NCBI GenBank assembly: GCA_004431415.1
Contig: QPMI01000589.1
Location: 49,973 to 113,972, forward strand
DNA length: 64,000 nt
Direction of reading: 5' to 3'
From: Cyanophora paradoxa CCMP329
Taxonomy: Eukaryota > Plantae > Glaucophyta
Position numbers and translations under genes: made by a program. The notes beneath the pieces are model-generated. The model did no database searches and was not told the DNA's origin. It worked only from the letters and a program-made list of their open reading frames with translations. Of the stretch, positions 10,324 through 62,983 are shown one piece after another (position 1 is the first letter of the stretch; every line of letters begins with the position of its first letter).

Positions 10324-10590
10324 GACGCTGCGCCGAGCGAAGTGAGTCAGACATCGGCGAGCGACCGCGCACTTCGCTCCACGAACGCACTTCGCACGCT
10401 TTCAAAATGATCTAACCGCGCCCCCGGCGCCACAGTGAACGTTTCGGGGCTCTTCAAGTAGCCGGCATATGCAGATGCAGCCGCAGAGCCAAGGGCGACT
10501 GCGGCGAAAGCTGGGGGGACGAGCCCGAGACGGCTACGTATACGCAAGCCGACCAAGCCGAGTCTAGAAGCTTAAGCTTAAGACAGACGG

Positions 10591-12285
10591 ATGTCCCTCT
10601 CGGAGCAAGGCGGCGGCGATCAGCTGCAGCAGGTTCCCGGAGCTCACTCCGCCTCGGTACGCGTCGCCGAATGCGCCGCGACGTCGACGCCGCGCGCGCT
10701 TCATCTGAACCCGCGGGCCGGGGCGCAGCTGGAGCTGCTGCCCGCGGACGTGCTCGCGCGCATAATCGAGATCGCTTACGCGGACCCGCTGGAGGCGCTG
10801 CCCTTCCTCCCGCGGGGCCGGCCGGGCCTCCCCTTCGTCCCAGCCGTCCGGGCGGCCCTCCCGCTCGTCGTCTGGCGCCGCGCCAGCCTCCCCGCCGGCT
10901 TCCAGGCCTTCGAGCACGTGTCCCGCCTCGTGCGGGTGGGCCTCGTGCGCGCCGCGCGGCGCCTGGAGGTGCGCGTGGCCTCCGGAGGCGACCCGCTCGC
11001 CGCGGCGGAGGCGGCGCGGCGACTCGCGACGCGGCACCTGACCGAGGCCGAGCTCTCCGTGTCCGCCGAGCTCCTCGACTGCCTCGGCAGCGGCCCGCTC
11101 GCGGCGCTGTGCGAGGCCCTCGCCCCCTCCGCGAACCTCGCCTCCCTCCGCCTCTCCTGCGGCTCCCTGCGACAGCGGCGCCGCCTCGACTGGCGCCCCC
11201 GCGACGCCCGCGCCCTCCTCTCCCCCTTCCCCGCCCTCCGCCGCCTCCACCTCAGCGACCTGCGGCCCTCGCCCCGCGCCGCCGCCGGCATCGCGGCCGG
11301 TGCCCCCCGCCTCGCCGAGCTCGTTGTCGACTTCTACGGCGAACCCGATGCCCCCCTGGACTCCAGCTCCGCCGCAGCCTTCGGTACCCTCCCCGAGCTG
11401 ACCTCCCTGACCCTTCGCGGCGCGCCCGTATCCCCCGACGTCATCCCCCCCTTCCGGCGGCTGACCGACCTCTCGGTGGACGAGCTGAGCCGCACGGCCG
11501 CCGCCGCCGCCGCCCGCGTACCCTCCCTCCGCCGCCTCTCCGCCGCCCTGCCCCACCCCGAGGCCCTCCCCAACCTCCGCCCCCTGTCCCTCACCGAGCT
11601 CGAGCTCGCCGGTACCCCCCCTGAGGCCCTCTCCGGCCTGCCCGCCTTCCTCGCCGGCCCCTCGGCCTGTACCCTCCGCGTCCTCGGGCTGCCCCGCTTC
11701 GAGCCCGTGCCCGCCCTCCCCGACGCCGCCGCCGCCGCCCTCGCCTCCCTCTCCTCGCTGGAGGAGCTGCGTGCCGGCCTCCTGACGCCCGCCGCGGCCG
11801 GCGCCCTCGCCGGCCTGCCCCGCCTCCGCCTCCTGCACGCCCACGTCTCCGACCCCGCCGCCCTCTTCCCGCTCGTGATGGCCCCGCCGCCCTCCCTCGC
11901 CGAAGCGGAGCTCCGGCTGCGCGGCGGCCAGCGCGCGTGCGCCCTCCTCTCCGCTGCGGCGGGGCCCCTGGCGGCCGCCCCCGCCCTCCGCCGCGCCACC
12001 GTCGCCCTCCTCGGGCCCGCCGCCCTCGACCCCTCCCCGGACTCGGCGCTCGAGCTCGTCGAGGCGGCCGCCCGGCTCCTCCGCGCCGCCGCGCGCCCCG
12101 GCCTCTCCTCCACGGTCCACCTCGCCGCCGCGCACCCGCTCTCCGGGCAGCTCGTCGAGTGGCCGCCGGCAGCCCGCGCCGCCCTCGAGGGCCTCGAGCC
12201 GCGCCTGGCCGCCCACTGGCCGTCCCTCTCCTTCCCCGGCTGCCCCTCCCCCTGCGCCGCCTGCCTCGCCCCTCCCAGAACATGA
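10591..12285 (+). CDS. Single-exon F-box-like/LRR (RNI-like) protein
   Basis: 564-aa ORF with LELLPADVLARIIEIA followed by many LxxLxL repeats. Confidence 0.7.
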   Translation: MSLSEQGGGDQLQQVPGAHSASVRVAECAATSTPRALHLNPRAGAQLELLPADVLARIIEIAYADPLEALPFLPRGRPGLPFVPAVRAALPLVVWRRASLPAGFQAFEHVSRLVRVGLVRAARRLEVRVASGGDPLAAAEAARRLATRHLTEAELSVSAELLDCLGSGPLAALCEALAPSANLASLRLSCGSLRQRRRLDWRPRDARALLSPFPALRRLHLSDLRPSPRAAAGIAAGAPRLAELVVDFYGEPDAPLDSSSAAAFGTLPELTSLTLRGAPVSPDVIPPFRRLTDLSVDELSRTAAAAAARVPSLRRLSAALPHPEALPNLRPLSLTELELAGTPPEALSGLPAFLAGPSACTLRVLGLPRFEPVPALPDAAAAALASLSSLEELRAGLLTPAAAGALAGLPRLRLLHAHVSDPAALFPLVMAPPPSLAEAELRLRGGQRACALLSAAAGPLAAAPALRRATVALLGPAALDPSPDSALELVEAAARLLRAAARPGLSSTVHLAAAHPLSGQLVEWPPAARAALEGLEPRLAAHWPSLSFPGCPSPCAACLAPPRT

Positions 12286-13602: not shown

Positions 13603-16600
13603 CTAATGCGCGCCATTCGAATCAGGCTGCGCAGGCGGGGGCCACTCGATCTCCCGCTCGACCCTCAGCACCGGCTCCGCGTCGGGGCCGAGGGGGGCCC
13701 CCAGGGGGTACACGGCGAGCCGCAGGGCCCCCGAGTGGCGGACGACCTCGAGGCGCCCCCGCCACGCCTCGGTCTCGGCGCCGGCACCAGTACCCCCCAG
13801 CTTCCCAGAGGCCTGCTGGAGGAGGGCCTCGAGGGCGGCAGCGAGGGCGGCGAAGAGGGCCTGGGGCTCCACGCCGGGCGCCAGGCAGCACGCCGCCAGC
13901 CGCGCCGCCGTCAGCGCGTGCATCCCGTGCACCCTGCCCGAGACTCCGGTCAGGGCCTAGGGGGCTAGGGGCTGAGAGGGGCGCACGGACCGGGCGGCGT
14001 TGTGGTAGGCGACGAGGGCGCCGCCGGCGGGCCAGCCCGCCACGCACAGGCGCGCAAGCACCCCCGTCGCCTGCACGAATCGTAGCGTAAAGAGAACGCC
14101 AAGGGCGGGCCGGGGCCGGGCGGGCCGGGGCGGGCCTTGGCGGCGAGGAAGGCGTCGTACTCGACGCGCATCTCCTCGTGGCTGAGGCCCCGGCTCCGCT
14201 TCTCCGCCAGCTCCCCCTTGTTGTACAGCTGCGTCCCCTCCGCTCAGCTCGGCGCAGCGACGAAGCTCGAAATTCGGAAGGGATCCGATCCGAAATGAGA
14301 TCAGCTAAGCCCAAGAAAAGCTCAAGCAACGACCGCAGAAGCTAAGCCTAAGAAAAGCTTAAGCAAGGGGCGCACGTGGGCGAGGGAGCGGGCCTTGCGG
14401 CAGCCGCGGACGAGGCGCCCGACGAGGAGCAGCTCGCGCCCCTCGTGCTGCGCCTGCACCTGCCGCCCAGCTCAGCGTGGGGAAGCTTGAGGCGGGGGCG
14501 GGGCGGGGCGGGCCTGGGAGCGGGCGGCGAGGGCGGGGGTGACGCCGACGAGGCGGGAGCAGGCCTCGCGGTGGGGCGGCAGGCCCGGCTCCGGCGCCCA
14601 CGCCCCCCGGTCCCCGCCCTCCAGCTCCTGCCACCCCGCCGGTCGAAGGGGGAAAAAGGGTCGCGGGGGTACGGGAGGGAGGGCGCACGGGGTCGCCGCG
14701 GCCTGCGAGGAGGCGGGAGACGAGGCGCTCGGTCCAGGGCCCGAAGCGCCGCCGCGCCGCCGCCTCGCCCCGCCGCCCCTCCGCCGCCTCCCCGCCGCCG
14801 CCAGCTCTGCCAGCGTGCGCGGCAGCGGCAGCGGCGCCTCGGGCCCGCCCTCCCCGCCCCCGGCCTCCGCCTCAGCCTCCTCCGCGCGCTCCGCCTCGCG
14901 CTCCGCGTCGACCAGCGCCGCCGCGCTGCTCAGCGCCCACACCCGCCGCCTGCGCATGCCGCCCCGCTCAGGCCCAGGGCAGGGCAAAGCTGGCCTGCAG
15001 AAATCGCGTACCCGTTCACGTCGTGCGGGGAGAGAACGAAGTCGGCGTTCCAGGTGTCCGAGACGGCCTTCTGCCAGGCCTGTACCCCCGCGCCCTCCAT
15101 GTCCTCGGGCTTCTTGCCCTTGGGCACGATGTACCCCTCCGCCAGCTGGGGCAGGTGGACCGGCCCCGTGGGGAGCGCCCAGGCCGCCCGCCCCAGCAGC
15201 TTCGAGAGCACCGCCGGCTGGCAGACGAACGCGTACCCCCCGGCCGCCGCCTCCCGCAGCAGTCCCTCGTCCAGGAAGGGCGGCGGGTCGGGCGCCAGGT
15301 CCGCCGCGTAGTCCACCGTCCGGAGGGAGGGTACCCCCGCGAGCGGGAGGGGTGTAGGGGGCCTCGGGTCGCCCGCCCCGGCCTCCGGTTCGGGGGGAGG
15401 GAAATGCGGGAAATCGGCGGCCATGTCCTGGGCCGTGCGGGGGAAGATCTGTGGGGGGTACGGGGTCGGACGGGCAGCTTCTAGTAGGTGGGAGGCTACG
15501 CACGGAGAAGTACTTGAAGGGGAAGCGTTGCAGAGCGGGGGCGAGGGGCGGGGGATCCCGAGGGGGCGGGGCCGGGGCCGAAGGCGGGGAGAGGGGTACG
15601 GGGACGAGGCCGGCGGCGCGGAGGGCGTCGGCGAGGGGGGGTACGGAGGCGTCAGCGAGGAAGAAAGGGCCAGAGGGGCGCTGGAGGGCCAGGGGGAGCT
15701 CGCGGTCCACGAGGGCGGCGAGGGCGGCGGCCGCTCGCTCCCGGCCGGCGGCGTCCCCGGGGGCCAGCCCCAGCGCCCGCCCCGCCCCGCCGGCCCCGCC
15801 CGCAGAGAGCGCCACGGTGATCTGCCCGCGCGGATCGTGAGGGCGGGAGGGAAGGGGAGGGGCCGGCGGGCGGCACCCGGGAGTGGACGAGGACGGGCGG
15901 GGCGGGTGCGGGCTCCGTGCCGGGGGGCCCGGCGGGGGCGGGGAGGCTCGGGTCCCGCAGCTCGCCCGCCGCGACCGGCCACTCCACCTCGACCTTGAGG
16001 AAGGCGGGTCCGCCCCCTTTCTCGGGCGGCAGCGCGAAGCCCAGCACCACAGCGGGGGCCTCTGCCGCCGCGTTCTTCAGCAGCGATCTGGGTTCAGAAA
16101 GGAGGGGTGTGCACCCTTCGCGCGGGCGCAGAAGTCCTCAGGAGACACGGCGGTCCAGCGGAGGGAGCGGAAGACGTGCCGCGGCGGCTCCGGGCGCCGC
16201 TCCTGCGGGCGCTCAGGTGAGGAGCCGCCGGCGCTCAGGTGAACGAGGGGGGTACAGAGGGCCCGCACGGCGGCGGTGGCGGCGCGGAGGAGCTCCTCGA
16301 AGGCAGGGGAGCGCGGGTCGGAGGCGGTGGCGGGGGCCGCGAGGGACGCCAGGCCGCCCCGCACCAGCGCCGCACCCACGTCCCTGGCCGCCGGTCGGAG
16401 GCCGCCGGCAGAGGGCGCGGGGCGCGGGGCGGGGGACGGCGCACGCACCCGGCGGGCCAGCGGAGAGGGAGCCGACGAAGGCGCCGCGCTCGCGGCGCTC
16501 GTAGACGGCGAGGCCGCCCGCCCCGAAGACCAGGCACGCCTGCGGGCGGCTCGAGGGAGGGCGGGGCGCGGGGGCGGCGGGGCGGGCCGGGCGGACCTGG

Positions 16601-17876: not shown

Positions 17877-19845
17877 CTACGGCCGCCGCATCCTGCTCAC
17901 TTCGGTGCGGCTGCGGGGGCGAGAACAGCGCTCTCCTCGCGGTACCACAGCACATGCACGCCATGGTTGGCCGGACCGGCGACCTCCGCCCCCAGCGGCC
18001 CCGCCGCGCGGAGGCACTCCCGCAGGCGTGTCTCCGCGAGAGTCTCGATGCCGTTGTCTGCTGGAGACCCAGGCGCGACGTCCGGTTTGTAGAAGATAGT
18101 CGACAGAGTGAGGATGGGTGCGGCGACGGATAGAAGGCGCCGCAGAGCCTCCTGGGTGGGGCCCCAGTCCGCAGGTGTGAGAAGAGGCTGGGTCGCGACG
18201 GCCGCAACCTTCAGGCCTGCGGCGCCCGCTCAATGCGTCAGACACTGGCGGACGCCTTCACTTGGCTGGACTGGGAGGGCAGTGCACTGAGGTTGATTTC
18301 GAGGCTCCTGAGGCTTTTGGAGCGCTCGACCGCGTCCGCGAGGCCGTGCATGACCGGCACCTCGGCGGCAGTGCCAGGGAAAAAGAGGAAAGTGAGGGTT
18401 GAAAGCTTCTCGCAGGCGGCGAGCGCCGCTACAGTCTCTCGCGATAGCCCGCCACCGGTACCGTCGGGGATCTGCGCGTCGTTTCAGATTGGCGTGACCC
18501 GAGAGGCCGCTGCAGACTCTAAGACGGGCAGAAGGGCGCAAGGCGCACTAGGCCGATGCCGACGGGGAAGGTGATGGTCTCGAGCCTCTTCATGGCTGCC
18601 AGCGCCCGCATCGCGGCAGGACGAAGAACCTGTGTGTTGCCCCTACGTGAAAGAGCATATGCTTCTTCTGACGTTCTCAGGCTGCTGAAAGATCTGCTCA
18701 AGCATTAAGCCACCGGCGCGCTTACGAAAGTTCAGAAAAGGGCAGCAGACTCACACGTCGGAGAGGGTGCGCAGGTTCTGGCCTGCGGGGCCGACGGCAA
18801 ACTCGGCAAAGCCAGAACCCAGGTCCAGATGATGATGGGTCCACCAGTTGAGCTCGTTCAGCTGCGCCATTGTAAGATCAAGAGCCGGAGGGGAAGATCG
18901 CGACTCGGGGGGCGGCACCTTCGCAAGCGAGGAGAGGCCGGCAAGGGCGTCGTCGTTCACCGGGCGGACGCAGAGGCGCTGCAGGGCGGGGCACGAGGCG
19001 GCGATCGCTAGCGTGTCCCTCCGGTCGACGAACATCCAGCTCGGGAGGAAGAGCTCTTCGAGGCGGGAGAAGGGGGCGAGCGCGCGGCGGAGCGCCCGCG
19101 CGCTGATCTCGAAATTGAGCGCCCTGAGGGCCGGCGGTTCGCCCCCGTCCTCGTCGTCCTCGTCGTTCGTGCCGGGCCCTTGCCAGATGTGGAGGACGGG
19201 CAGGCTGCTCGAGGACGATGGCGGCGGCCGCAGCGCGCTCAGCGTCCCGAAGACCTCCGACAAGACGATGTCGCGGCCGACGGCATTCCGGTGGCCAGGC
19301 TCGAAGCGAGGCAGCACGCGGTTCAAGGCCGCCATGCGGTAGAAAACGCCAACGCGCCCGAGAGACCCCGCCGCCTGCAGGGATGTCCGCAGAGCCTCGT
19401 GTGCCGCACGCCCGAGAGTGTTGATCTCGACATCTGCTAGGAGCTCGTCGACTTGCGCAGGGCTGCTGCTGCTGGCATCGAAGTCCCGATACTCCACGTG
19501 CAGCTCGACCTCCGCCGCCCCGCCGCCCCGCAGCCGCAGCCGCCCGCTCCGCAAGAACGCCGCCAGCGAGTCGAATGTCGCCGGCCGAGTCCCCGTCACG
19601 CTCAACATGCGCCACTCGGTCTCCTGCACCAGCCGCCGCCACTTGCGGCACACCAGCCGAGCCGTCCGCCACGCCTCGTCCGCGCCGAAGTGCTCGCTGA
19701 AGATGCGCTCCAGCAGCGCGTCTGGGAGCACGTCAATGAGGCTGCAATCGACGCCCGAGCCTTCCGCTGGCTGAACGAGAGTGGCGGCGGCAAGCTGCTG
19801 GGACGTGTCAGCGTCCGTTCTTGCGCGCTTCGACTGCGGCTCCAT
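17877..19845 (-). CDS. F-box/LRR protein, family 1 copy B (3' exons possibly degenerate, end approximate)
   Basis: MEPQSKRART..IDVLPDALLERIFSEHFGADEAWRTARLVCRKWRRLV, with the same exon order as copy A. Confidence 0.75.
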
Positions 19846-23954: not shown

Positions 23955-24439
23955 AGCTAGCTAGCCCCTTGCAATCGCACATTTCTAGATCTAGATCTGT
24001 TCGAACATGAAAACTGTTGGCTGTATGTAGCTGCCAGACTACTCGAGCGCACTCCCGGCCGCGGGGTGATCGATAGCAGCTCATGATCAATGTTAACGTT
24101 AACGCAAGCCGGCTCGATCTGCGCCGGCGAGGATATCGATTTTAATTTCGAATATTAATTCGAATTCCAGATCGAATTCGCGCGGAAAGATTGCAATTGC
24201 GTAGCCGTCTCGGGCTCGTTCCCCCAAGTTCGCGGTCCTTGGCCGGGCGCCTGCATGCCTCTAGATCTGCAGCTGTCGGCTGCAGCTCAAAGGGTCTCGA
24301 GTCCCGACGCGTTCACTGTGGCACCGGAAACGCGGTGAGAGCGATTCAAAAGCGTGCGAGGTGCGTTCGTGAAGCGCAGCGCGCGGTCGCTCTCCGATGC
24401 ATATGTCTCGCTCACTTCGCTCCGCACAGCATCACGATC

Positions 24440-26487
24440 ATGGAGGTGCAGTCGAAGCGAGCAAGAACGGACGGGGACCAGGGCGCGTCCCAGCAGCTTG
24501 TAGAGCCAGCGGAAGGCTCGAGCTCGGCCGTGGCTGACAGCTTCATCGACGTGCTCCCGGACGCGCTGTTGGAGCGCATCTTCAGCGAGCACTTCAGCGC
24601 GGCCGAGGCGTGGCGGACGGCGCGGCTGGCGTGCCGCAAGTGGCGGCGGCTGGTGGAGGAGATCGAGTGGGGCGAGCTGCAGGTGGACGGGACGCGCCCA
24701 GCAACTTTCAGAACACTGGCAGCGGTCGTGCGGAGCGGGCGGCTGCGGCTGCGGGGCGGCGGGGCGGCGGCGGTGGAGTTTGACATCAAGTATCGGGATG
24801 TCGAGCGCAGCAGCAACCCTGACGACGCGCCTGTGATCACTGCGCGCAACGAGGAGCTGCTCGCGGAGATCAAAGTCGACGCGCTCGGGCAAGCAGCGCA
24901 CGACGCTCTCCGTGCGTGCATGTTAGCGGCGGGGGGCCTCCGGCACGTCGGCGTCAGCTACCACATCGGGGCGTTGAGTGACATCCTGTTGCGATTCGAG
25001 GACGACATGCGCGTCGCAATCGGCCGTAGGATCGCCTGGAAGGATCTCGGCGCGCTCAGCTCGCTGCAGCCCCCGTCCTCTTCATCGAGCAGCCTGTCCA
25101 GCCTCAGCATCCGGCGGAGAGACGTGGAGGAGGAGGAGGAGGAGGAGATGGACGAGATGTGGCAGGAGAGGCTTTGGATCCAGCGTGAGCTCTTCCTGGG
25201 CTTCGGCCCGAACGGCGCGCGGGCTCTGCGCACAGCAAGTTCACCCTTCTCCGGCCTCAAGTCGCTCATTTTCTCGTTCTCGTTGTTTTTTGGACGGGAG
25301 GAGACATCAGCGATCGCAGCCTCGTGCCCCGCCCTTGAGCGCCTTCACCTGTGCCCGTACGACGAAGACGCTTTCGTGGGCTTGTCTCCGCTGTCGAAGG
25401 TGCAGTCCGGCTAAGCTTTGATGTGGGGCAGACGCATTTCACAGTCTGAACTATTCTCGTTTCGGGGTCGCAGCTCGAGGAGCTTCGATGGTCTTCCAAA
25501 CTGTGTCAATTCAGCCCCGTCAGGCCGCGACTGACCCTCGGCGTTCACTTCGCGGAGTTCGCCGCCAGCCCCGCCGGCCAGAACCTGCGCATTCTCGGTG
25601 ATGCGTGGAAGGGGTGCACGTGATTTCCAAGCTTCCGTTTGCGCTCATGACTCGCTTCCCCTGAACTGCACCCAGACCTGCAGCTGGGGACAAAAACCAC
25701 GGACATGGCGATAGCTCGCAGCGGATGCGGCCCTCGGCGGCGTGCGCTCTGCCGGCCATGCGGAGCCTCGAGCGCCTCCTGTTCACGGAGGGCATCGAGG
25801 TCGTGCGCTCGCTTTTGGTCTGCTAGCACTGTGGCTTCTCGTGAACGCGTGGTCCGACGGTACTGCTCACGCTTTTTTTGTTTTGCAGAGCGATGGCCCC
25901 ATTGATTTTGGGGATGCACGGGAAGCGGTGGCGTGCATCGGCGCATGCGAGAAGCTCACGGAGCTCTCGTTCATCTGCAAGAACACCTCCGCCGGCTTCG
26001 GGGCAGAGACGGCCGTGCTGAACGGCCTCGCGGACGCCCTCGGGCGGTCGAAGAGCCTCCGCCACCTCGACCTCTCCTTCCGTGCGTGCATCCTTCACTC
26101 TAGGTCTTGATCTATTCTAGATCCGCGCAGTCCCCTGAAATCTGATCATGAGCTCAACCGGGTCTGGCAGTCATGGACAACGAACCTTATGAGCCCTGGC
26201 CAGCCTCGTCTGAGAACTGGGGGCCCTACCGTGAAGCTATGGGGCGCCTGCTGGCCGCCGCCGCGCCCGTCCTCCGCTCGGCAGTCGTCGCCTTCACGGG
26301 CATGGACGATGGCGACTACGGAGACACCCTGCACGACCGGCAGGCCTGCCTGTGGGAGAGCCTGCGGGCCGCCGGGCCGCTCGGGGCGGAGCTCGCCGGG
26401 CCGGCTCCGGTCGTGCAAATGGCCACCGTGACCGAACTGAGGTGGAGCCGCGCGGAGAGCGCTGCCCTCACCCCTATGCCGCAATGA
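24440..26487 (+). CDS. F-box/LRR protein, family 1 copy C
   Basis: MEVQSKRART..IDVLPDALLERIFSEHF; last exon WGPYREAMGRLLAAAAPVLR..LWESLRAAGPLGAELAG is shared with copy A. Confidence 0.8.
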
Positions 26488-39019: not shown

Positions 39020-39905
39020 TACTGCGGCGCGCGTGTACTGCTAAGTGAGCTCGATCGCGAGCTATAGCTGGCTACAGCTGCAGTCACAGCTACAGCTAGA
39101 GCTGGTCGACGCAGCCGACGTCGGGAGCGGATTAGGAAGAGTGAATCGTGGTAGGAGTAATCGTGTCACGATCAGTTCTTCATGACCATGCCAGTTCTTA
39201 GTCTGAGCGGGGCGTGCGGGCGGATCCGGACTCCGGAGGGCCCGGGACAGCTGCAGGCAGTGTTTCGAAATTTATTAATTAGCTGTAGACTCTGAGCTTG
39301 ATCTCGAAAGGGCTACAGGTGAATTCCACTTGTTAACTCGAGCTCTAGAGCTTCGAATTCGCCGCGCCACTCTAGATCTATATGATCTATAGCTACAGCT
39401 AGCTGGAGCTTGGGCCCCATGGCCAGCTGCAGGGCACCATGGCCACCTCGTCGTGGTACTAAGGGCCGGGGCCGCCGCCGGGCCGGGGGCGCTGGAAATT
39501 TCGCGATCGATGGAATGTACAACGCATTGATATCGATTCACCGTGTCACTGATTCAATACGTGTATACTAAGTTACATTATTCGAAGCTATATAGCTATA
39601 TTATGATTATGCAACAGAAACGAAGGACAGCGTTATGATTAGCTGCACTTGTACATGCGATCGCAAATTCAACTCGAAGCCTAGCTATATATGTGGGCTC
39701 TTGCCAAGGGTCGAGCTCTCGAGCTTGCCCCTTCGCTGTCAATGCATTGTTAACCCTCGGAGGTTGATGAGTCACGCGTTGCGGAGGTTGCATTGTTATA
39801 TTGCATTCGGGGAGGCAGGGGGACTAACACGTCCAATGTACCCCCCGGGGGCCTCCCGGCCTCTAACTAGGCTCGGACTCTAACTGAATGCTGTACCCCC
39901 TGCGG

Positions 39906-40656
39906 TTACTGCCCGAGCCTAGCGAACTTGCGTAACTCGGCCTCGCCCTGTACCCAGTGACTGGTGTCGTCCATCCATTCGCGTACCTCCCTCTGACGCT
40001 TGAGTGACTCACGCTGCTCAGGTGAGGGGAGGGGGGCCGTAGAGGAGGGGCCGCGGCGGGGGTACCATGCCAAAGTTTGCCCACTCGGGGGGTATACCGA
40101 ATTCACCGTGATCGATTCTCTGAGGCGTGAAGTACTGGCCGTCGCTCAGCGCCAGGTGGTAGAAGGCGTTTCGCAGTCGTCTGAGGAAGCGGGGCTGCAC
40201 AGTCTGCGGGTCAAGGCTCTCGAAGCGCCACGGTGCCACAAAGTCAATGATACGCTCCTGCACCCGCGCGGGCAGAGCGAGGATCTGGCTCTTGCGGTTC
40301 GCAAAGGCCATCCACAGTGCTTGTAGGTCCGCCCAATCGCCGTTCAGATCCCTGCGTTCTCGCCTGCCATGATTGCGTGGATTGATCGTCATACCCATGA
40401 AACGTGCTGCGCCGATGGTGTTTTGATCTGGAAACTCTTGATCGTCGTTAAACTTATCTCGTATCCAGCGCACGAGGTACAGCACGCGTTCCATAAAGTT
40501 CTCCCCGGGCGATCCGCTCCCCGAATCGGGGCCCATCGCCCATCGCCGCCGGTGCAGATCGGATTGTGCGTCGTCCAAGTCCACGGTCCGCTGTAGGATC
40601 TCACCGATGATGGGGCCGTTGTTGTACAGCACGTCGGACTCGCGTGTCCGCGCCAT
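39906..40656 (-). CDS. Viral hypothetical protein with an F-box-like motif, paralog 1 (frameshift near 40035)
   Basis: FMERVLYLVRWIRDKF..SQILALPARVQERIIDFV; the C-terminus REVREWMDD..QGEAEL is in a shifted frame. Confidence 0.6.
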
Positions 40657-40711
40657 GCTCGCGGCTCGCTGAGAATATCTACCCGTACCCCCTATCACGT
40701 CCACCTCCACG

Positions 40712-41392
40712 TCAGGCGATTGTTCTCGAAAACGGGGTACGCCTCCTCCTCTGGGGTATAGTGCCGACCTTTGCCTCACCCGGCAGACGGTTTCGATCGT
40801 CCTGCAGCCAGTCGCGCAGTCGCTTGCGCTCGTTGATGGGGGCCTCGAGTCAAAGGGGGATACGTAGGCGGGGGCGGGGGTGGGGCGGGCGGAAGCTCTT
40901 GCCAGCTCCGGGGTACGAGCTCGCGTGGAATCTCGAGCTCTGTGTACCGTGAGCCGTCGTACTGTCGGACACCGCCTTCGCCTGTACGCATGTACCACTG
41001 TATCTCATTTCGAAGCCCATTGATCACATCGCCTTCGCGCCCGTCTCTACCTGCGAGTAAGAAGTTCATGATCTTCAATCTGGCCTCGTTCGGCAGACGG
41101 GCCACGCGGCTTCTAGGCGACATCAGCGCCACGTACAGGGACGTAAGCACACTGCTGAAGTCCCAGTTCCGATCATAGGATGGGGGGCGAGCCTCACGGT
41201 ATCCGCAGCCCTGGGCTGCAACAGGGGCTAGCCCCTCAGCGGAAAGGACGACGTTCCTATCCGATTTCGCATCCCCTCCTTGAACTTATCTCGTATCCAA
41301 TGGGCCAGGCCCCTAACGCGAGTCAGGAACTCTTCGGGGCTCGAATCTTCGTCCATCTGCGGGACCGGGCTCGAATCTTCGTCATCCGACAT
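40712..41392 (-). CDS. Viral hypothetical protein with an F-box-like motif, paralog 2 (two apparent frameshifts)
   Basis: FLTRVRGLAHWIRDKF, SRVARLPNEARLKIMNFLL and KRLRDWLQD..PGEAKV align in order with paralog 1. Confidence 0.55.
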
Positions 41393-41444
41393 TTGCAATT
41401 GCACACAACGAGAAATTCTAAACGCTACTGCGAGGCTACGAGCT

Positions 41445-42113
41445 ATGGACCTACAACAGGGGAGCGCGGCGTGGCACGCTGCGCGCCGCGAAAAGCTAAC
41501 CGCCTCGAACTTTGCCGCCGCGTGCGGCATAAACCCCTGGAAATCCAGGGCCCGCCTGTGGGCGGAGCTAAGCGGGATAGCGGAGGAAAACAACTTTGAC
41601 AACCCTGCCCTAACCTATGGGCATGACTATGAGCCCCTCGCGGTCTCTATCTACAAGGCACTGAACGATAACGTGGACATTCAACATACTGGACTGCACG
41701 AACACAAAGAAATGCCGTTCCTCGCCGGGAGCCCCGACGGACTTATAGGAAATGATAGGATTTTAGAGGTGAAATGCCCTTACAAGGGCGAACTTTATGA
41801 TAGAGTTCCTACCTATTATATGCCTCAACTGCAAGGACTTCTGGACATCACGGGCCGCGAGTGGGCCGAACTTTTTTGCTTCACTCCTCTGCGCGTGCAA
41901 ACGTGGTACGTCAGGCGCGACGAGAGGTACATCGAGCTCATGAGGAAGTGCTTACATCTATTTTGGATGCACGTCAAGGAGGGCACGCCGCCCGAGCCCT
42001 ACAGCGATCGAATGAAGTTAGAGAACCTCAGCGAGGAGCAGGCGGCGCTGCGCGAGTTTAAGTCGTACGCCCTCCTCTCAGAGTCTAGGCAGACTACTTC
42101 TGTCCCAGGCTAG
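41445..42113 (+). CDS. YqaJ/lambda-exonuclease-like PD-(D/E)XK viral recombinase
   Basis: QGSAAWHAARREKLTASNF, YGHDYEP, FLAGSPDGL, LEVKCPY, YYMPQLQG. Confidence 0.93.
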   Translation: MDLQQGSAAWHAARREKLTASNFAAACGINPWKSRARLWAELSGIAEENNFDNPALTYGHDYEPLAVSIYKALNDNVDIQHTGLHEHKEMPFLAGSPDGLIGNDRILEVKCPYKGELYDRVPTYYMPQLQGLLDITGREWAELFCFTPLRVQTWYVRRDERYIELMRKCLHLFWMHVKEGTPPEPYSDRMKLENLSEEQAALREFKSYALLSESRQTTSVPG

Positions 42114-42621
42114 GTCTTTGGAATCTTAATATAAATTTTCCGGGACCCGGGACAGGCCTTGTCGGACATGGCAATGTCAGAACCTTCCCGATCATCTAGA
42201 TCTATAATGATTCTAGGGAGGGTCCAGACACATCTCTTGTGCGGACCACTTCTGTCCCAGGTCTTTGGAATCTTAATATAAATTTTCCAGGGACCCGGGA
42301 CAGGCCTCGTCGAACAAACCTCTTCATGGGCCAAGATTTCGTGCATGCATCGGCCGCAGCTCATGCGAAAAATCATGTCTGATCCGATCCTGATCATGAC
42401 GTCCTGCAAATTGAAGAATCGTCTGACCGGGAGTGTCCCGGGTCCCTGGAAATTTTATATTAAGATTCCAGAGACCCGGGACAGATCTACCTAGAGGGAA
42501 CATCCAAAATGCTGTACCCTCCCACCCCGTGATCTTTCGAATTCAATCTGATGGGCCGACCTGAGTGACGGTGTCCTGGTCCCGGAAAGTTTATATTAAG
42601 ATTCCAAGGACCTGGGACAAG
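42097..42621. repeat. Four copies of a ~54-bp quasi-palindromic repeat (42097-42154 and 42249-42302 forward; 42434-42484 and 42572-42621 reverse)
   Basis: Consensus CTTCTGTCCCAGGTCTTTGGAATCTTAATATAAATTTTCCAGGGACCCGGGACA. Confidence 0.92.
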
Positions 42622-42685
42622 AGCAATGCATTTTCGCACGACGTTGACATAGCCTGATCACGAGAGAAAAATGTACCCCGATCTA

Positions 42686-45600
42686 TCAAATCCGCCGATG
42701 GAGCAGCGAGTAGCAGTCGCAGAACAGATCTTTCACCTCCAAGTAATCCGGCCCCACGCCAGCCCAGCGCTGCCTTGCTTGGCGCTCTGCAACATCTTCG
42801 AGAGTGTCTTCCTTGACCCACGTGATGCACTTGCGCTTGCGAGAGCCGGCGCCCTCCTGCCCTTCTCGGGTCCGTTTTTCCCCGGACCGGGCCCGTCTCA
42901 CCCCATGTACTTTTCGAGCAGGTACTGAATCACCCGCCACGACTGCTGCGCAAGCTTGGCCTTCTCATTGTCCGATGCATCGAGTTTAGGGGCCCGCTCG
43001 TCCAGACTCTGCAGCACCGCGTAAGCCTCCCGGCCCTCCGGTGATGCGAGCGCCGCGTAGGCTTCGTCCGACCAAAGCATACAGCTGTCGCCGGCCAGCT
43101 TCTCGTACCCCGGCCCAAAAAGTCGCTTGAAAAGCTCCGCAACCTTCGAGACCCTGTGGTACTCAGTAGACGAGGCGATCTCGGCCATGTCGCCGCCGCG
43201 CTTCAGCACAAGGATGATCCGCGACATCAGCGGGATCGAGTAGAATGACTTCCACAGCCAGGCCACGTCGCTCTCGGTCAGCGCGCTTGCGTCCTTGGCC
43301 AGGAACGCAGCGGTCGCTAGGCGCGCGAGTGCAGCAACCTTCTCCACGTCGACCTTAGCAAGCGAATCGCGCGAATGCCACCAGGAGTCCAGCAGCATGT
43401 ACAGTTCGGTGATGTCCAGGGCGGAGACTCGAGTACGTACTTGATCTCGCGCTGCCGCTGCTCCTTCTCCTCTTTCGGCCCCTTGTTTCCCTGATCCTCC
43501 GTGACCCGCACGTTCATCACGGCGCAGGTCGACAGCAGCCGCAGCCGCGCGGCCACGGCGAGGCGCCGCGTCGGCATGCCGGCCCGCCGACTCCCGTGAT
43601 GGCTCGCCTTCAAGTCCAGATAGCGCTGCGTGTCTGCAGTGCTAGCTCTCTCATCATCGCTCTCACGCCAGTGCGCGGTCGCCTCGCCCACGCTGACGGA
43701 GGGCGCGGACGCGCGGCTCTTGCGCACGGCGACGAGCAGGTGCTCTCCGCCGGGCGGCTCGCCGCGCCTGCGCAGCTTTCTCACTCGGAACAGCAGCTGC
43801 ACGATGTCGTCGGCCTCTAGCTGCGCGGGTTCGGCCTGGAAAACGCCGTAGATCTTGTCAAAGTGCGCTTCCGGAAAGTCCACGCCCGCCCCGAGCGCGG
43901 ACGTCGCGATGAGCACGTCGCAGGCCTTGTACGCGCCCTCCTCCGAGACGTCGATCGACACTACGCGGACCGGGCCCTCGTTCGTGAAGCGCACGCTCTT
44001 CTCCTTCGCCTGCCCAACGATGAGCCCAATTGTGAACGGTGCGCCGCTGCCGTCCTCGGGCCCTGCCTCGAGCTGAGTCACGTACTGAGCGCCGCCCAGG
44101 CTGAGCTGCTCCAGCGCCTGCTTCGAAATCTTGTCTGCTAGCTCATTCGCCTTGGCCGGCGTCTCCGCGATGATCATGGCCCGCGAGCGCCCAGGTCGGC
44201 ACTGCACCATGATGTCCTTCTCGACGTGCGCCGGGCTGTCTGACACGCGCATCTTCCAGTCGCAGGTCCGGCGCGAGTTGTGCAGGAGCCCAAGGCGCGC
44301 CCCGCGCTCCAGCGCGGACTCCGCGAGGTACGCGAGATCGACCGGCCGGACGAAGCCGTCCATCGCCACGATGCGCGAGGCCTTCATCACGTTTCGCATT
44401 AGCTGCACGCAGCGCGCGTTTCGGGGCATTGACCGCACGCCCATGTGCAGGCCGGCGGGTTCGAGGGTGCCGCTCGAAGTGAGGTGCTTCGTGAGGGAGG
44501 AGAGCTCGTCCAGCACGATCATCAGCGGCGCAGTCGACCAGCCCGCCCAGTCCTCAAGTACCTTGTGCAGCGAGTCGATCGTGATGACGACGCACCTGCA
44601 CTTCGGATGGCGGTAGCCCCACTTGCCGTGCGTCCCATTTGAGCTCTCCGGCGGCTTCTGAATGTCCATGTACAGCACGGCGTCCTCAGGCAGGCCCACG
44701 TCATCCAGGCGGCGCTTCAGGTCGCGGGAGAAGGCGCGGCGGCAGGTCAAGAGGATCACGCGCCAGCCCCCCTCGAGGGCTGGCTTCAGGTACGTCTCGA
44801 TGAGGGCCTGCGTCTTCCCCGTGTTGAGGCCCGAGCAGATGACGTCGACCTGGGCGGCCCCCGGCTCCAGCGGACCGAACGTGGAGGTGAGCAGCCCTGG
44901 ATCGCGCGTCAGGTAGTCCGTATCCACGACCTTCACGCAGTGCGGTGTCAGGCCCGTCGATTCGAGTGCGATCAGGAGCGACGGGAGGGCCACGTCGAGC
45001 GCCACGGGCTGGGACGGGTCCGTCACGTAAGACGCCGCCGTCTCGCTGCAGCTCCCGTCTCCAGCTCCCCCTCCTGCTCCACCTCGACACCGTGCGCCCG
45101 AATCGCGATTCTGAGGGCCGGCGATCCTGGCTGATCGCTCATCTTCAGGGTGATTGTTCCGTCGGGCTCGACTGCAATGTCTTGAACGCGGCGGGGGTCA
45201 TTCAGGCTGATCTCAGTGCGCAACGCCGCCCCCGCCCGCCAGATCTCGTCCCTCACCAGCTTGTTCTCGCGCAGGAGGCTCAGGAACCGATCGAAGTCCG
45301 GGAGCGGAGCCTGGGCGTCGCCCGTCAAGCTCAGCGGGGGGTGGGGCGGCTCCTTGCGGGGGAGGAGCTCCTGGCGCCGCAGTCCCGAGCAAGCCCCCCG
45401 AGCTGCGGCGCCCTGCGGCCCCTGCGCCACCCCTGCGCCGATCCCTGCGTCGGCCCTGCAGGACGTAGGCTCCTGTGTCGTCCCCCCGAGCTCCAGGCCG
45501 CTAGATGTCCCAGCAGCCAGGTCGCAAAGGCGCAGGCCTCCGGGCTCTGCAGGACGTAGGCAGCCTTGAGCCCGTTGTGCGATGTTCGAGAGAAAGTGAG

Positions 45601-45851
45601 GCCTCCGAAGCTCTCCGCGCATGCACGGGCGGCCGCGGTGCTCGTCTCGTCTTCCGCGTCGGAGAAGTGCTTGGACATGATGTGCGGCGGGTGAAAGATA
45701 CAGAAGACCATTCCGAGATCAGCGCTGCAGACCTTCTGGACGCAGACGAGGGGAAGCGAGTGAAGAAAAGCTCTTCTTGCGGGCTCAGGTCCACGGGAGT
45801 TACCCCCGGCAGACGGGAGAGTAGACTGTCGGAGCACGTCGAGGTGGCCAT
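42686..45851 (-). CDS. Herpesvirus UL9-like origin-binding SF2 helicase with a long N-terminal region; split by several frameshifts
   Basis: ICSGLNTGKT (Walker A), VILLTCRRAF, VVITIDSLHKV, IVLDELSS, IVAMDG and DVLIATSALGAGVDF..HFD in ORF 43317-45026; flanking ORF pieces abut in shifted frames. Confidence 0.8.
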
Positions 45852-46026
45852 GCTCTCGGGTTAGGCCTGCTGTTTCGTGTTAGGCTTGGAAAATTTTCAG
45901 TGGCACCGGCCGGAAACTGCACACCTTGAGAACTCGAACTCGAACTCCAAGGCTCGGTGAATTGGCGCTAGCTGCACTGTCGACGTCGACTGTCGGACCG
46001 TCGACGTCGGACTTCGGATGTCTCGT

Positions 46027-46080
46027 CTTCTGTCCCAGGTCTTTGGAATCTTAATATAAATTTTCCAGGGACCCGGGACA
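46027..46080 (+). repeat. Fifth copy of the 54-bp repeat
   Basis: Identical to 42249-42302. Confidence 0.92.
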
Positions 46081-50815: not shown

Positions 50816-51480
50816 GCGTCATTTACGTCCGCGTCATTTACGTCACGGAGTTTGCCGGCGACTCGGGACTCGGGCCCAACTTCTCCCGGTAAGTTCGAGA
50901 CTTGAACTCGGCGGGGGTACCCCCCGGTGTCCTAGTGTCCTAGTGTCCTAGTGCTACTAGCTAGGTGGTATCGATATCTAGCTAGCTAGCGCTAGCGCTT
51001 GCTTAATTAATTAACCTGAAGGGTCGCGTCATTTACGTCAGCGTCATTTACGTCACGGAGTTTGCCGGCGACTCGGGACTCGGGCCCAACTTCTCCCGGT
51101 AAGTTCGTCACGACCAGTAGCTACTAGTACCGCTAGTACTACGTAGTACTACTTAGTACTACTTGGTACTACTTAGTACTACTAGCTTAGTACTAGTAGC
51201 CACCGATACTGGTACAGCTTTTATAGATTTAAGCATTCATTCAATGTGAATAACGATAATAGTAATAATAATAACGATAAGTAATAGGGATACCCTATTT
51301 TTCCAAGTCTCGAACTTACCGGGAGAAGTTGGGCCCGAGTCCCGAGTCGCCGGCAAACTCCGTGACGTAAATGACGCTGACGTAAATGACGCGACCCTTC
51401 GGTAACCTCCGCAACCCTTCAGGTAAATGTCAGGTAACTTCAGTTGAGTTAATTAAGCAAGCGCTAGCTAGCTAGATATC
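50816..51480. repeat. Non-coding inverted-repeat locus with TGACG iterons and an AT-rich core
   Basis: Perfect 90-bp inverted repeat 51018-51107 / 51311-51400; extra direct copy at 50816-50904; outer imperfect arms at ~50973-51010 / 51449-51480. Confidence 0.92.
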
Positions 51481-51889
51481 ACAGCTCTACCTTGCCCAAG
51501 TTGATGGTATCTAGCAGGGCCTGCTCCTCCAAGTCTGCACCGCCGCCGCCGCCCAGCGCTAGCGCTAGCTCGATACCGCCTCCGGCCTTGATCTCCCTTG
51601 GCTCCAGCCACCTGAGGGGCTCAGGCCACCTCCTCCTGGTGAAGCCGGTATCGTTGCTCTTGTCCAGCTTGAGGTAGCGGTAGGGCGCCGGCGCCGGCCA
51701 GTCCGGCCTGTGGCCGCTTGCCTCCTTGGCTATGTCCTTGGGCCTACGCGGTCGCAGGTCCGCCTTGGCCTTCGCCCTCTGCAAGGGGCCCAGCGCCTTG
51801 AACTTCGGTGCCTTGGTCGCCGGCAGGGCCTTCGGCTGGGGCTTCACCGCCTTCGGCTGCTGAGGCCTTAGCTGCTTCGATTTCGGCAT
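51479..51889 (-). CDS. Basic Lys/Pro-rich viral protein
   Basis: 136-aa ORF overlapping the 3' part of the upstream ORF; upstream TTTTCTCA. Confidence 0.45.
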   Translation of the reverse strand: MPKSKQLRPQQPKAVKPQPKALPATKAPKFKALGPLQRAKAKADLRPRRPKDIAKEASGHRPDWPAPAPYRYLKLDKSNDTGFTRRRWPEPLRWLEPREIKAGGGIELALALGGGGGADLEEQALLDTINLGKVEL

Positions 51890-52127
51890 ACTTCTTGCTC
51901 ATAAATGAGAAAAGCGCCTCGAAGTCGGCCTTTATCTCCTCCTTGGTCCAGGATGTCACCTGATCCGGGTCACCTGAGAACGGCGCATCGAACGCCACGT
52001 GGAGCGATTTGCAGGCCTGAGCTATCATTGGCTCGGGCCAGGCCAGCTCGATCAGCTGAAGGTAGATGTTCAGGGCCTTGTCGAGCTTGGCGCCCTGAGA
52101 GACTAGCTGGGAGATAGCGGGCTCCAT
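51744..52127 (-). CDS. Viral hypothetical protein
   Basis: 127-aa helical ORF; upstream ATTTTCTAAA. Confidence 0.55.
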   Translation of the reverse strand: MEPAISQLVSQGAKLDKALNIYLQLIELAWPEPMIAQACKSLHVAFDAPFSGDPDQVTSWTKEEIKADFEALFSFMSKKYAEIEAAKASAAEGGEAPAEGPAGDQGTEVQGAGPLAEGEGQGGPATA

Positions 52128-52212
52128 GGTACAGCAGAGCTTTAGAAAATGGCGCCAAGTCCAAGTCCTTTTTTACGGGCGAGGCCTGGGCCGGGGGCCA
52201 GGGCCGAGTCCC

Positions 52213-52264
52213 AACTCCGTGACGTAAATGACGCTGACGTAAATGACGCGGACGTAAATGACGC
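52213..52264. promoter_or_regulatory. Tandem GACGTAAATGACG array in a divergent intergenic region
   Basis: Three tandem units, same motif as in the 51-kb inverted repeat. Confidence 0.6.
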
Positions 52265-56067: not shown

Positions 56068-57456
56068 CTAATGGAAGCGGCGGTAGGCGCCGCCGTTGGT
56101 GAAGGTGATCTCGTTGTAGTAGCGGCAGTAGATGTCGGCCACGGGCAGGTTGGGTGCCGTGTAGGTCTTGAGCGTGGTGAGCGTGAGCTCGATGGTCTTG
56201 AAGGCGCCCATGTCGAGGCCGCCGAACATCTTGGTGTTGTCCGCCACGTCCGTGCCGAAGGGGAGCGAGTAGATGAACTCCGTCCCGAACTGGCCCACGT
56301 TGCGGGGCTGGATATCGCTGCTGTGGGCGTCGTGGGCCGCAAGGGTCACGTTCCCCGTGGTCCCCGGCACGTTATCGTGCCCCGACCACGGGTGCGGGTG
56401 CAGCGCGTCGGCCACGTCGGCGGCCGCCGTCCCGTCCATCGAGGTCACGCCCCGCAGCAGCTCGAGGTGCTTGCGCGTGGGGGCGTGCGTGTGCTCCTTG
56501 TGCGCGATGGCCGTGCGCAAAAAGTGCGCATCGTGGTTCGAGCTGTCGACCACCTTGATGTTGTCGCACTTCAGCTCGATCTTGTCGAGCGGGCGGAAGC
56601 GCCAGAAGTGCTCGCCGTTGTCGGTGTGCGGCTTGTCGCGCACCACCACGATCAGCTCGTAGCAGATCCCCGTGAAGGGCAGGCGGATGGCGGCGCCCGA
56701 CGTGAACTGGACGTGGTAGTGCTGCACGTACTTGCCGGCCCACGTGAACGAGTTCGGGTGCAGCGCCAGCTCGCGCGAGTCGATGTGCACGTAGCGCAGG
56801 ATGAGCTTGGTGTCCAGGCTGACGCTGCTCGTCAGGCTGGTGTTCGTGTGCAGGCCGCCGTCCACGAAGGAGGCCGTCACCTCCTTCTGCGACGCAAAGG
56901 TGATCTGCAGCTTCATCTCGTTGCCGGTCCCGCGGATCTTGTGGAGGGGCACGGCGAACTTTCGACCGAAGCCCGTCGCGATGCGGATCGGCACGTACAG
57001 CGTGTTCGGGGCCTTGCCCCGGCGGCGCAGCGGCTGGTGCGCCCAGAGGTTGTTCACCATGTCGACGTGCTCGGTGACGGACTTGTCGTCCTCGAACTCG
57101 CCGTAGATGGCGTCGTGGTGGCCGTCGTACTCGTGGATCAGCTGCGTGCCCACGAAGATCTTCACCTTCTTGAGCAGCACGTAGCCGGCCTTCGGGATGT
57201 AGAAGTGGTCGGCGTTCGTCAGCGCCGGCAGCGTCACCCGGAGCCAGGCGTCGTTGAACATCGGCGCCGAGTGCGGGATGACGATGTCGACGGTCTGGCC
57301 GAAGGTGACGCCCGACTGCACGGGGCTCACCTCGAGCACCTCGTCCACGAACGGCATCGCCGTGTCGAAGGTCTCGTGCACGTGCACCGACGCGTCGGAG
57401 CTGCGCAGCGAGTGGTGCAGGGCGGTCGTGGGGGTGGAGATGAGCGCGGAAGCCAT
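56068..57456 (-). CDS. Double-jelly-roll major capsid protein, NCLDV-type
   Basis: TFGQTVDIVIP..WLRVTLPAL..GYVLLKKVKIFVGTQLIHEYDG, TLYVPI, FIYSLPF..GGLDM, YCRYYNEITFTNG; 462 aa. Confidence 0.9.
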   Translation of the reverse strand: MASALISTPTTALHHSLRSSDASVHVHETFDTAMPFVDEVLEVSPVQSGVTFGQTVDIVIPHSAPMFNDAWLRVTLPALTNADHFYIPKAGYVLLKKVKIFVGTQLIHEYDGHHDAIYGEFEDDKSVTEHVDMVNNLWAHQPLRRRGKAPNTLYVPIRIATGFGRKFAVPLHKIRGTGNEMKLQITFASQKEVTASFVDGGLHTNTSLTSSVSLDTKLILRYVHIDSRELALHPNSFTWAGKYVQHYHVQFTSGAAIRLPFTGICYELIVVVRDKPHTDNGEHFWRFRPLDKIELKCDNIKVVDSSNHDAHFLRTAIAHKEHTHAPTRKHLELLRGVTSMDGTAAADVADALHPHPWSGHDNVPGTTGNVTLAAHDAHSSDIQPRNVGQFGTEFIYSLPFGTDVADNTKMFGGLDMGAFKTIELTLTTLKTYTAPNLPVADIYCRYYNEITFTNGGAYRRFH

Positions 57457-61177: not shown

Positions 61178-61654
61178 TCACAACGGATTGAGCGCGGCGT
61201 AGAGGGCGATTAAGTAGGCGTCGCAGAGGTCGTCGAGCTTGCCGTTTCGATCCGCGATGTCGGCGAGCTCGGCGGGTACGAGGTCGCGGCACTTGTCCAC
61301 GGCGCCCCGCTTGCGCTCCTTGTAGCTCGGGTTCGAGATCTTGAAGAAGTGCTTGATGGCGCGCGGGCTCACGATCCGCGCACGCCCGTACAGCAGGGCG
61401 TGGAGCGTGCACTCGATGCAGCGATTGATTCCCGTCCTCTGGCCCTCGATCGCGATCTGGTCGGGAAGGCCGAAGGCGCTATGGCCGCGAGTAACCTCCA
61501 CCAGGCGCGCAACCAGGCGGCCACAGCAGCGCGCAGACGGGAAGAGGGCGATCTTCTGCCAGTCGAGAATCTGGGATTCCTTTGTCTGCGGATCGAATTC
61601 GATGAGGCACCATGCGAAATTGATGACCCCCACATCCACGCCGAGGATCTTCAT
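61178..61654 (-). CDS. RuvC/poxvirus A22-like Holliday junction resolvase
   Basis: MKILGVDVGVINFAWC, IAIEGQ, YKERKRGAV, KLDDLCDAYLIA. Confidence 0.92.
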   Translation of the reverse strand: MKILGVDVGVINFAWCLIEFDPQTKESQILDWQKIALFPSARCCGRLVARLVEVTRGHSAFGLPDQIAIEGQRTGINRCIECTLHALLYGRARIVSPRAIKHFFKISNPSYKERKRGAVDKCRDLVPAELADIADRNGKLDDLCDAYLIALYAALNPL

Positions 61655-61899: not shown

Positions 61900-62065
61900 A
61901 TGAAGGGGGTAAAATGGCCAAGGACCCCAAGAAGCCGAAGAAGCCGAAGGCGGCCAAGCCCCAGCCCGCCCAGCCCGCAGGCGCAGCGCCCGCGGCCCCG
62001 CCCCCGCCGGCCAGGCCACCGGCACGGGCTCGGGCACGGCCCCCGCCGCCGGCGCCAGCTGCGCC

Positions 62066-62983
62066 ATGGGCATGACAGAGGACGGCCAGCAGCTCACGCC
62101 CGAGCAGGTCAACGCCTTCCTCGACAACTCGAAGACGGGAGGCATCGAGCGCATGGCCTGCCTGCCCGAGCTCAAGTGGTTCGACGTGAACACCGTCAAG
62201 TCCGACGCCACGGTCGTCTGCGTCGGCAAGCGGCGCACGGGCAAGTCCTTCTTCCTCCGCGATCTCATGTTCAACCTCTCCGGCACCTTCCCGGGGGGTA
62301 TCGTGATCAGCCAGACCGATCGCCTGAACGGCTACTGGAAGCAGTACATCCCGCAGCGCTTCATCTGGCCCAAGTACAACCCGGGCGTGCTCTTCCATTT
62401 ATTCAGGAGGCAGCAGGCGATCATGCAGCACAACAAGTCCGAAGACGTGCTCGCGGGAAAGGAGGATCCCGTCGACCCGCGATTTTTCGTGCTGCTCGAC
62501 GACGTGATTTCCGACGCTCGGCTGCGGTACGACGAGGCCCTCAACGAGCTCTTCGTGGCGGGGCGCCACTACAAAATCATGACCCTTATCACGACGCAGT
62601 ATGCCAAGGGCATCAATCCCGTCCTGCGCTCCAATACTGATCTGGCTGTCATTTTCAAGTGCTCGCAGGCGATGCAGCGCGAGGCCCTCGCAAAGGAGTG
62701 GGGCGACATCATCTCCCAGCGCGCCTTCTACTACCTGCTCGATAAGTACACGCAGGATAACCACTGCCTTATCATCGATTCTTCCAACAACTCTACGAAC
62801 CCTCTGGACGTTTTGTACGTCTACAAGGCCGAGGAGCCGCCCCCCTTCCGCATCGGATCCAAGGAGTACTGGGAGGGCGAAACCGTCAACGGAGAAAATC
62901 TCGTGGGTCCGGACGACGGCACGGTGGACAAGACGCTCCTCGGCATGATCTCTAACTTCCGCAAGTCTCGGGGTCTTGCGTAG
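62066..62983 (+). CDS. A32/FtsK-HerA family DNA packaging ATPase (true start may be 61914 via a frameshift)
   Basis: VCVGKRRTGKS, FVLLDDVI, LNELFVAGRHYKI..ITTQYAKGINPVLRSNTD. Confidence 0.95.
   Translation: MGMTEDGQQLTPEQVNAFLDNSKTGGIERMACLPELKWFDVNTVKSDATVVCVGKRRTGKSFFLRDLMFNLSGTFPGGIVISQTDRLNGYWKQYIPQRFIWPKYNPGVLFHLFRRQQAIMQHNKSEDVLAGKEDPVDPRFFVLLDDVISDARLRYDEALNELFVAGRHYKIMTLITTQYAKGINPVLRSNTDLAVIFKCSQAMQREALAKEWGDIISQRAFYYLLDKYTQDNHCLIIDSSNNSTNPLDVLYVYKAEEPPPFRIGSKEYWEGETVNGENLVGPDDGTVDKTLLGMISNFRKSRGLA

Follow-up and report, generated by a model that had tools for sequence, protein, structure and literature searches.

Palindromic repeats beside a UL9-like helicase gene in an endogenous mriyavirus-like element of Cyanophora paradoxa: likely binding sites and replication origins of the adjacent helicase

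The stretch of DNA analysed here, called the window, is 64,000 nucleotides long and comes from contig QPMI01000589.1 of the glaucophyte Cyanophora paradoxa CCMP329. Its right part is an endogenous mriyavirus-like element, and near the left end of that element a UL9-like superfamily 2 (SF2) helicase gene stands among five short palindromes. The original prediction, made from the sequence alone, had proposed that gene and palindromes form an initiator-origin pair resembling herpes UL9 and oriS. The features on which the argument depends are the following.

39716-64000, no strand assigned: endogenous mriyavirus-like element, running past the window end; placed by Pfam matches and a step in depth after 39715
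41445-42113, plus strand: YqaJ/PDDEXK nuclease gene (Pfam PF09588, E 3e-28), which converges on the repeat cluster
42101-42154, plus strand: palindrome U1, 54 bp, left arm with a short insertion; overlaps the YqaJ stop codon (42111-42113)
42253-42302, plus strand: palindrome U2, 50 bp, identical in sequence to U5
42434-42483, minus strand: palindrome U3, 50 bp, with the arms closest to perfect of all five units
42572-42619, minus strand: palindrome U4, 48 bp, the most degenerate unit, 66 nt past the helicase stop
42686-45851 (approximate), minus strand: UL9-like SF2 helicase gene, about 1000 codons in several frames; the start codon is the author's choice
45889-45898, minus strand: element-wide promoter-like motif, putative in function, some 42 nt before the start of the helicase gene and apart from U5
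46031-46080, plus strand: palindrome U5, 50 bp, identical in sequence to U2, 180 nt upstream of the helicase start and inverted relative to U3 and U4

The five palindromes are confirmed as a real feature, at the count and in the places first described. They range from 48 to 54 bp, and each has GC-rich, imperfect arms of about 18 bp around a 14-bp A/T-rich loop. The earlier description of inverted arms around a pure A/T core was right about the inversion, but the arms are imperfect, the symmetric 14-bp loop holds one C per unit (two in U4), and the pure A/T 14-mer quoted there is present in U1, U2 and U5 only. In the unit alignment the loop sequence is asymmetric and better conserved than the arms, and U3 and U5 with their flank have 67 bp in common at 91%. 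U1 and U2 point rightward, U3 and U4 leftward and U5 rightward, so the helicase gene is flanked by inverted copies; U1-U4 span 66-585 nt downstream of it, between the converging ends of the helicase and YqaJ genes. A core 16-mer common to the units occurs exactly five times in the window, against 0.01 expected by chance, and the sole extra near-match, with three mismatches at 9247, has no arms. A profile built from the units found no sixth copy in the 64-kb window (next match E 4.2), which bears out the placement of four units downstream, one upstream and none elsewhere. Three of the five units pass a strict GC-stem/AT-loop filter that gave no match in 20 shuffles. An Rfam scan returned two weak microRNA matches, far under the cut-off, and the core 16-mer was met in 55 stretches of viral_contigs, none of them with the arms.

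In the assembly no single open frame covers the helicase, which reads in pieces on the minus strand from about 45851 to 42686. Short-read contigs from three DNA-type runs across the gene show no substitutions and 5 and 6 gaps, and other host gene models read through three of the pieces; the frame breaks are therefore most likely assembly errors (indels). Introns were considered as well and rejected, the apparent GT-AG joints being on the wrong strand for the gene. The sequence matches Pfam PF02399 (Herpes_ori_bp) above the cut-off (E 5e-10) over profile positions 42-164 of 820, which is the helicase part only. In a word-index search of EukProt, twelve proteins were the only matches, and these comprise at least four variants that are 46-99% identical; the host's other variants are 46-75% identical. 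One host paralog, P0001, was modelled from 42 sequences with a predicted local distance difference test score (pLDDT) of 73. The best match of the model in the Protein Data Bank (PDB) is the origin-binding protein (OBP) of HSV-1 (herpes simplex virus 1), with a Foldseek E of 5.5e-15 and a VIA Z of 20.6 versus 16.4 for the next family. Herpes OBP heads the PDB matches by sequence and by fold, and the top named BFVD matches are viral replication origin-binding proteins. The window gene is thus, as first proposed, a UL9-like SF2 helicase, with a core that appears closest to UL9 by sequence and by the predicted fold of its paralog. The alignment of P0001 with OBP covers 511-538 residues and reaches model residue 829 and chain residue 819, and the best Atlas score is 0.78; as the alignment has a root-mean-square deviation of about 16, it suggests at most that helicase and UL9 may have a C-terminal DNA-binding fold in common.

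The depth of short-read contigs links the repeats to the gene. In the three runs the host flank has depths of 115, 36 and 18, and the helicase contigs 723-889, 153-239 and 91-95. The YqaJ bins are about twenty times deeper, while the bins that hold units stay near the helicase level (1417 and 1791 in run X1 versus 723-889 for the helicase contigs), summed contig depth being a rough guide to copy number only. Because the unit bins match the helicase rather than YqaJ, this suggests that the repeats belong to the window's helicase variant and not to the much deeper YqaJ gene. In one run presumed to be RNA, contigs cover the helicase and YqaJ but not 42163-42569; this pattern is given no weight here.

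Relatives were surveyed for the same association. Distant UL9-like helicases (37 matches) were used to fetch 38 loci, of which five came through one sub-alignment and are mostly from large viruses and 33 are small AT-rich contigs. The small contigs are called virophage-type here, a label verified for part of them: Sputnik-type capsid genes were confirmed in two, and 18 have a protease-like gene in common. The control was the best 80 of 472 protease-anchored loci, 11 with a UL9-like gene, 22 with a D5/superfamily 3 (SF3)-type gene and 47 with neither in view. For the counts, duplicates were merged and two loci, L168 and L190, were left out because the gene was not recovered there. The comparison is one among distant relatives, and the sample holds no close relative of the window element; no close relative of the helicase was found in viral_contigs or metagenome_contigs either.

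Many of these loci contain a palindrome of 45-67 bp with GC-bearing arms and an A/T centre, in the typical case 80-270 nt ahead of the helicase start and 1-20 nt past the stop codon. A repeated palindrome family was found in 15 of 36 UL9-type contigs and in one of 21 SF3-type contigs (p 0.0025). With helicases clustered at 80% the figures are 11/28 versus 1/19 (p 0.015), and at 60% they are 10/19 versus 1/14. A second detector gave 14/36, 11/28 and 9/19 for the UL9 type (unclustered, 80% and 60%) and one SF3-type case each time (1/21 unclustered). Repeats on both flanks of the gene were seen for 7 of 28 UL9-type genes and for none of 18 SF3 genes, the other genes in those loci giving 4/145 and 1/147; in this both-flank test the window helicase scores 89 bits.

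The palindromes also vary with the helicase. On the protease tree the two helicase types are interleaved, with 13 changes, at least six of them forced, and the palindrome arms track the helicase tree, a FastTree with long branches in which the window helicase is not placed, rather than the virus backbone. Six loci (L106, L107, L111, L112, L113 and L122) have their arms in common, although between L107 and L122 the helicases are 68% and the proteases 34% identical; conversely, the arms differ between L120 and L121, where the helicases are 55% and the proteases 86% identical. A clade's arm served to locate the site in L095. None of 23 arms matched in 22 SF3 loci, and one, that of L181, also matched in loci other than its own (L109/L125 and L198). 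As many as seven copies are distributed along 16 kb in L172; hitch-hiking beside the gene is thus not the whole account. The contigs L132 (UL9-type) and L133 (SF3) agree at 88% identity along 2.5 and 9.3 kb outside the helicase cassette and differ in the cassette itself (4150-7330 in L132, 3300-5600 in L133); the UL9-type gene of L132 is flanked by inverted repeats of about 120 bp, and L133 lacks the arms. Where palindromes were seen with no helicase in view, two of four loci (L126 and L140) turned out to have a UL9-like gene in another part of the record, compared with none of three palindrome-free records searched.

Two other genes were noted in the surveyed loci. A telomere-resolvase-like gene (PF16684; L092, 4381-5148) directly follows a UL9-like helicase with no palindrome family, and a saccharopine-dehydrogenase-like gene (L186, 1154-2530) belongs to a cluster seen in four virophage-type loci.

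Based on these results, the palindromes are likely to be binding sites and replication origins of the adjacent UL9-like helicase, the two forming one swappable initiator-plus-origin module; this reading draws on sequence comparison and on analogy with known origins. Helicase molecules would bind both inverted arms, as in HSV oriS and the rep-ori of Staphylococcus aureus pathogenicity islands (SaPI), and would distort and open the A/T loop, where unwinding would start. The element's putative single-stranded DNA-binding protein (SSB) would then coat the strands and a host polymerase would copy them. Spare units would provide several origins, comparable to baculovirus homologous regions (hrs), and sites on either side of the gene would allow exchange of the cassette in one piece and might also enable the helicase to regulate its own gene. 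In a wider scheme, which we put forward tentatively as a plausible but still doubtful extension, the UL9-like helicases outside herpesviruses would be true sequence-specific initiators, the mriyavirus and virophage lineages would each own an oriS-like palindrome, the pair would replace SF3 modules as a cassette, the site would then spread through the genome, and herpes UL9-oriS would be one offshoot.

A number of observations weigh against the proposed initiator role. The RVKNL recognition motif (taken from PMC12543377) is absent from all four host helicase variants and from all 36 relatives with a UL9-like helicase, and Pfam detected no AEP primase or PriCT domain in the window pieces or in protein P0002. 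Replication in mriyaviruses has been proposed to start by an HUH nuclease (PMC11253617). Among the relatives, 21 of 36 UL9-type contigs and all five large-virus loci have no repeat family. The sole exception in the control, the SF3-type contig L151, carries a 113-bp palindrome twice (5091-5203 and 11955-12067). No UL9-like gene was found in two palindrome-bearing records, the fragment L181 and L177; the latter, a complete virophage-type record, has tandem units of about 160 bp with G-rich and C-rich arms at 15430-15930. Four of the five window units contain the element's promoter-like motif, and a second repeat family in the element, at 50816-52264, could be a rival origin candidate or a host-factor enhancer. 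Both palindrome detectors were designed after the UL9 loci had been seen, the second misses the window's own unit family, and the UL9 loci are centred on the helicase whereas the SF3 loci are centred on the protease. In a profile comparison of the window helicase with its very distant virophage-type relatives the helicase core alone aligns, and because the two are linked through that core alone, we carry the virophage result over to the window element by inference from the shared layout. For the original prediction this means that co-occurrence, co-variation and one helicase swap speak for a pair, in distant virophage-type relatives rather than in the element's own family, while the C-terminal domain lacks RVKNL and the units are at most candidate boxes of the UL9 type.

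As a rule, transcripts of giant viruses end at hairpins, and the units could be such 3'-end hairpins copied along with the helicase cassette. The positions of U1, overlapping the YqaJ stop, and of U4, 66 nt after the helicase stop, in a gap between convergent genes, fit this explanation. So does the distribution of 55 copies in 20 relatives' loci, none of them inside genes: 32 lie within 40 nt of a stop codon, which also counts against origins, but seven are found between divergent starts and 16 in other intergenic positions. No gene end precedes U5, SF3 virophages of the same sample lack such families, and the arm sequence is kept within a helicase clade even kilobases away, which a signal of structure only would not need; we regard this explanation as improbable. 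About as improbable is that the units serve a mobile helicase cassette as its ends or recombination sites, such as cruciforms that the element's RuvC-like resolvase or YqaJ would cut, and are not origins. Inverted copies do bracket the gene in the window and in L132, the cassette swap between L132 and L133 is clean, and U3 is predicted to fold as a strong DNA hairpin; on the other side, no target-site duplication is evident at the units in their alignment, many copies in relatives are far from the gene, and a Pfam scan of 31 window frames turned up no integrase family.

It is quite improbable that the units act as promoters or operators with no origin role, their TATA-like loop and promoter motif serving transcription and a regulator, perhaps the helicase itself, binding their arms. 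Of 20 chosen start codons, 19 have a loose (A/T)TTTC-type motif 10-55 nt upstream, compared with 9% of random windows, the motif having been defined from the same genes in which it was counted. Its strict 8-mer form occurs ten times in the element and not at all in 39.7 kb of host DNA, and the motif, noted over 41400-63500, is a candidate mriyavirus promoter. But no conserved reading frame follows the units, four of them lie between converging gene ends, and U5 faces away from the helicase, whose gene has a separate copy of the motif. Nick sites of HUH rolling-circle nucleases usually have a GC stem and an A/T loop, and the units are built in this way. An HUH nuclease is encoded by all mriyaviruses in PMC11253617, and one encoded outside the window could use the units as stem-loop nick sites; this is very unlikely, given that the association in relatives is with the helicase and that none of 30 gamadvirus-like loci has such repeats, a weak control that covers the ATPase neighbourhood only. 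Finally, the original prediction had named a genome-wide host miniature transposon (MITE), or its ends, unlinked to the helicase, as the case that would undo it. This is hardly credible: the 39.7 kb of host sequence in the window holds no copy, and a high-copy host repeat is disfavoured because the unit bins stay near helicase depth in all three runs.

The reading of the palindromes as helicase-bound origins can be compared with several known systems. UL9-like helicases are known in mriyaviruses (SF2_hel), mimivirus (R8) and African swine fever virus (its pF1055L), and SF2_hel occurs in some Yaraviridae together with an intact AEP domain (PMC11253617). With these proteins and the SmDNAV primase-helicase (bioRxiv 2026.08.29.747986) the window system shares a UL9-like helicase, a Nucleocytoviricota-type virus and no DNA polymerase gene in view; it differs from the mriyavirus SF2_hel in its Gamadviridae-like backbone, with no AEP detected. 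The available text of these two sources names no cognate origin for the helicases. The HSV-1 pair UL9 (OBP) and oriS (PMC12543377) has a helicase of the same SF2 family and inverted arms around an A/T-rich spacer, and the units do have the oriS-type layout of two inverted boxes flanking such a spacer, a match in layout only. In contrast to UL9, the window helicase lacks RVKNL and has an extra N-terminal region; no equivalent of Box 3 is evident in the unit alignment, in which the boxes themselves are undefined; and the window has five short units beside the gene, in a jelly-roll virus of an alga. Since RVKNL is absent and binding is inferred, the system is not classed as UL9-oriS proper. SaPI rep-ori (PMC9371898) likewise combines a helicase-initiator with an origin directly behind its gene and opposed repeats around an AT-rich centre, but it is bacterial, its Reps act as hexamers, and it has short iterons with a single origin of some 300 bp, whereas in the window units of 50 bp lie on either side of the gene. 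The hrs of baculoviruses (PMC4535591) are multi-copy clusters of imperfect palindromes that serve as origins and enhancers; they have no tie to a UL9-like gene, whereas arms of the window type track the helicase. In polinton-like viruses, terminal repeats have been proposed as origins for the adjacent primase-helicase, a related but different layout (PMC11296320).

The gene and the element are thus of known kinds, and the link between repeat and helicase is apparently new. UL9-like helicases in jelly-roll viruses had been described before (PMC11253617), so this part of the claimed novelty falls, and endogenous Mriyaviricetes in a glaucophyte assembly, matching the window in type of element and type of host, have been published (bioRxiv 2025.04.19.649669) in a text whose available part mentions neither helicases nor repeats. 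No description of a repeat-helicase link was found in a literature search with subscription journals and bioRxiv supplements outside its range, and the same search turned up neither a mapped origin in virophages or mriyaviruses nor the DNA target of a UL9-like helicase outside herpesviruses. Since a short candidate site accompanies each helicase clade, binding and initiation can be tested with oligonucleotides, cross-clade controls included. If the proposal is true, it would assign a function to a gene family widespread in giant viruses and place herpes origin recognition in an evolutionary context; in the wider, more doubtful scheme the series of clades would be a natural code of protein-DNA recognition.

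The remaining part of the element holds these genes:

52775: putative SSB
56068-57456: major capsid protein (MCP), by Pfam
61178-61654: RuvC/A22, by Pfam
61913-62983: A32 ATPase, by Pfam
elsewhere within the element: DUF5767 and HNH genes, by Pfam

Hallmarks of Mriyaviricetes found in the element are an MCP of the nucleocytoplasmic large DNA virus (NCLDV) type, the A32 ATPase, RuvC and the PDDEXK nuclease. Pfam gave no match for an HUH endonuclease, VLTF2 or VLTF3 among the 31 window frames, and the element extends past the window. Six of the element's genes are met again in Gamadviridae-like contigs collected through the A32 ATPase (30 loci; ATPase 44-52% identical), and the gene order of these contigs seems to fit Gamadviridae by the numbering in PMC11253617. 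Gamadviridae-like viruses are reported to carry SF3, and on such a backbone a UL9-like helicase would count as a replacement. The gamadvirus-like record G001 gave no UL9-like match, with positive controls silent or absent there.

By contig depth the element is multi-copy from about 39716 to the window end. Its probable left end is at 39706-39716, where a single-copy contig stops at 39715 and the depth jumps. Two minus-strand genes at 40018-41530 seem to be paralogous to each other, the second broken by likely assembly indels. The second repeat family (50816-52264) has perfect inverted arms of 90 bp (51018-51107 and 51311-51400) around an AT-rich core of 203 bp, with a third copy at 50816-50904 and an incomplete one at 52213-52264; each contains tandem motifs, which we presume to be CRE/ATF-like. 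On the host side, a dispersed repeat is present in three diverged copies that are 80-92% alike (8400-10450, 18280-19760 and 24300-26300).

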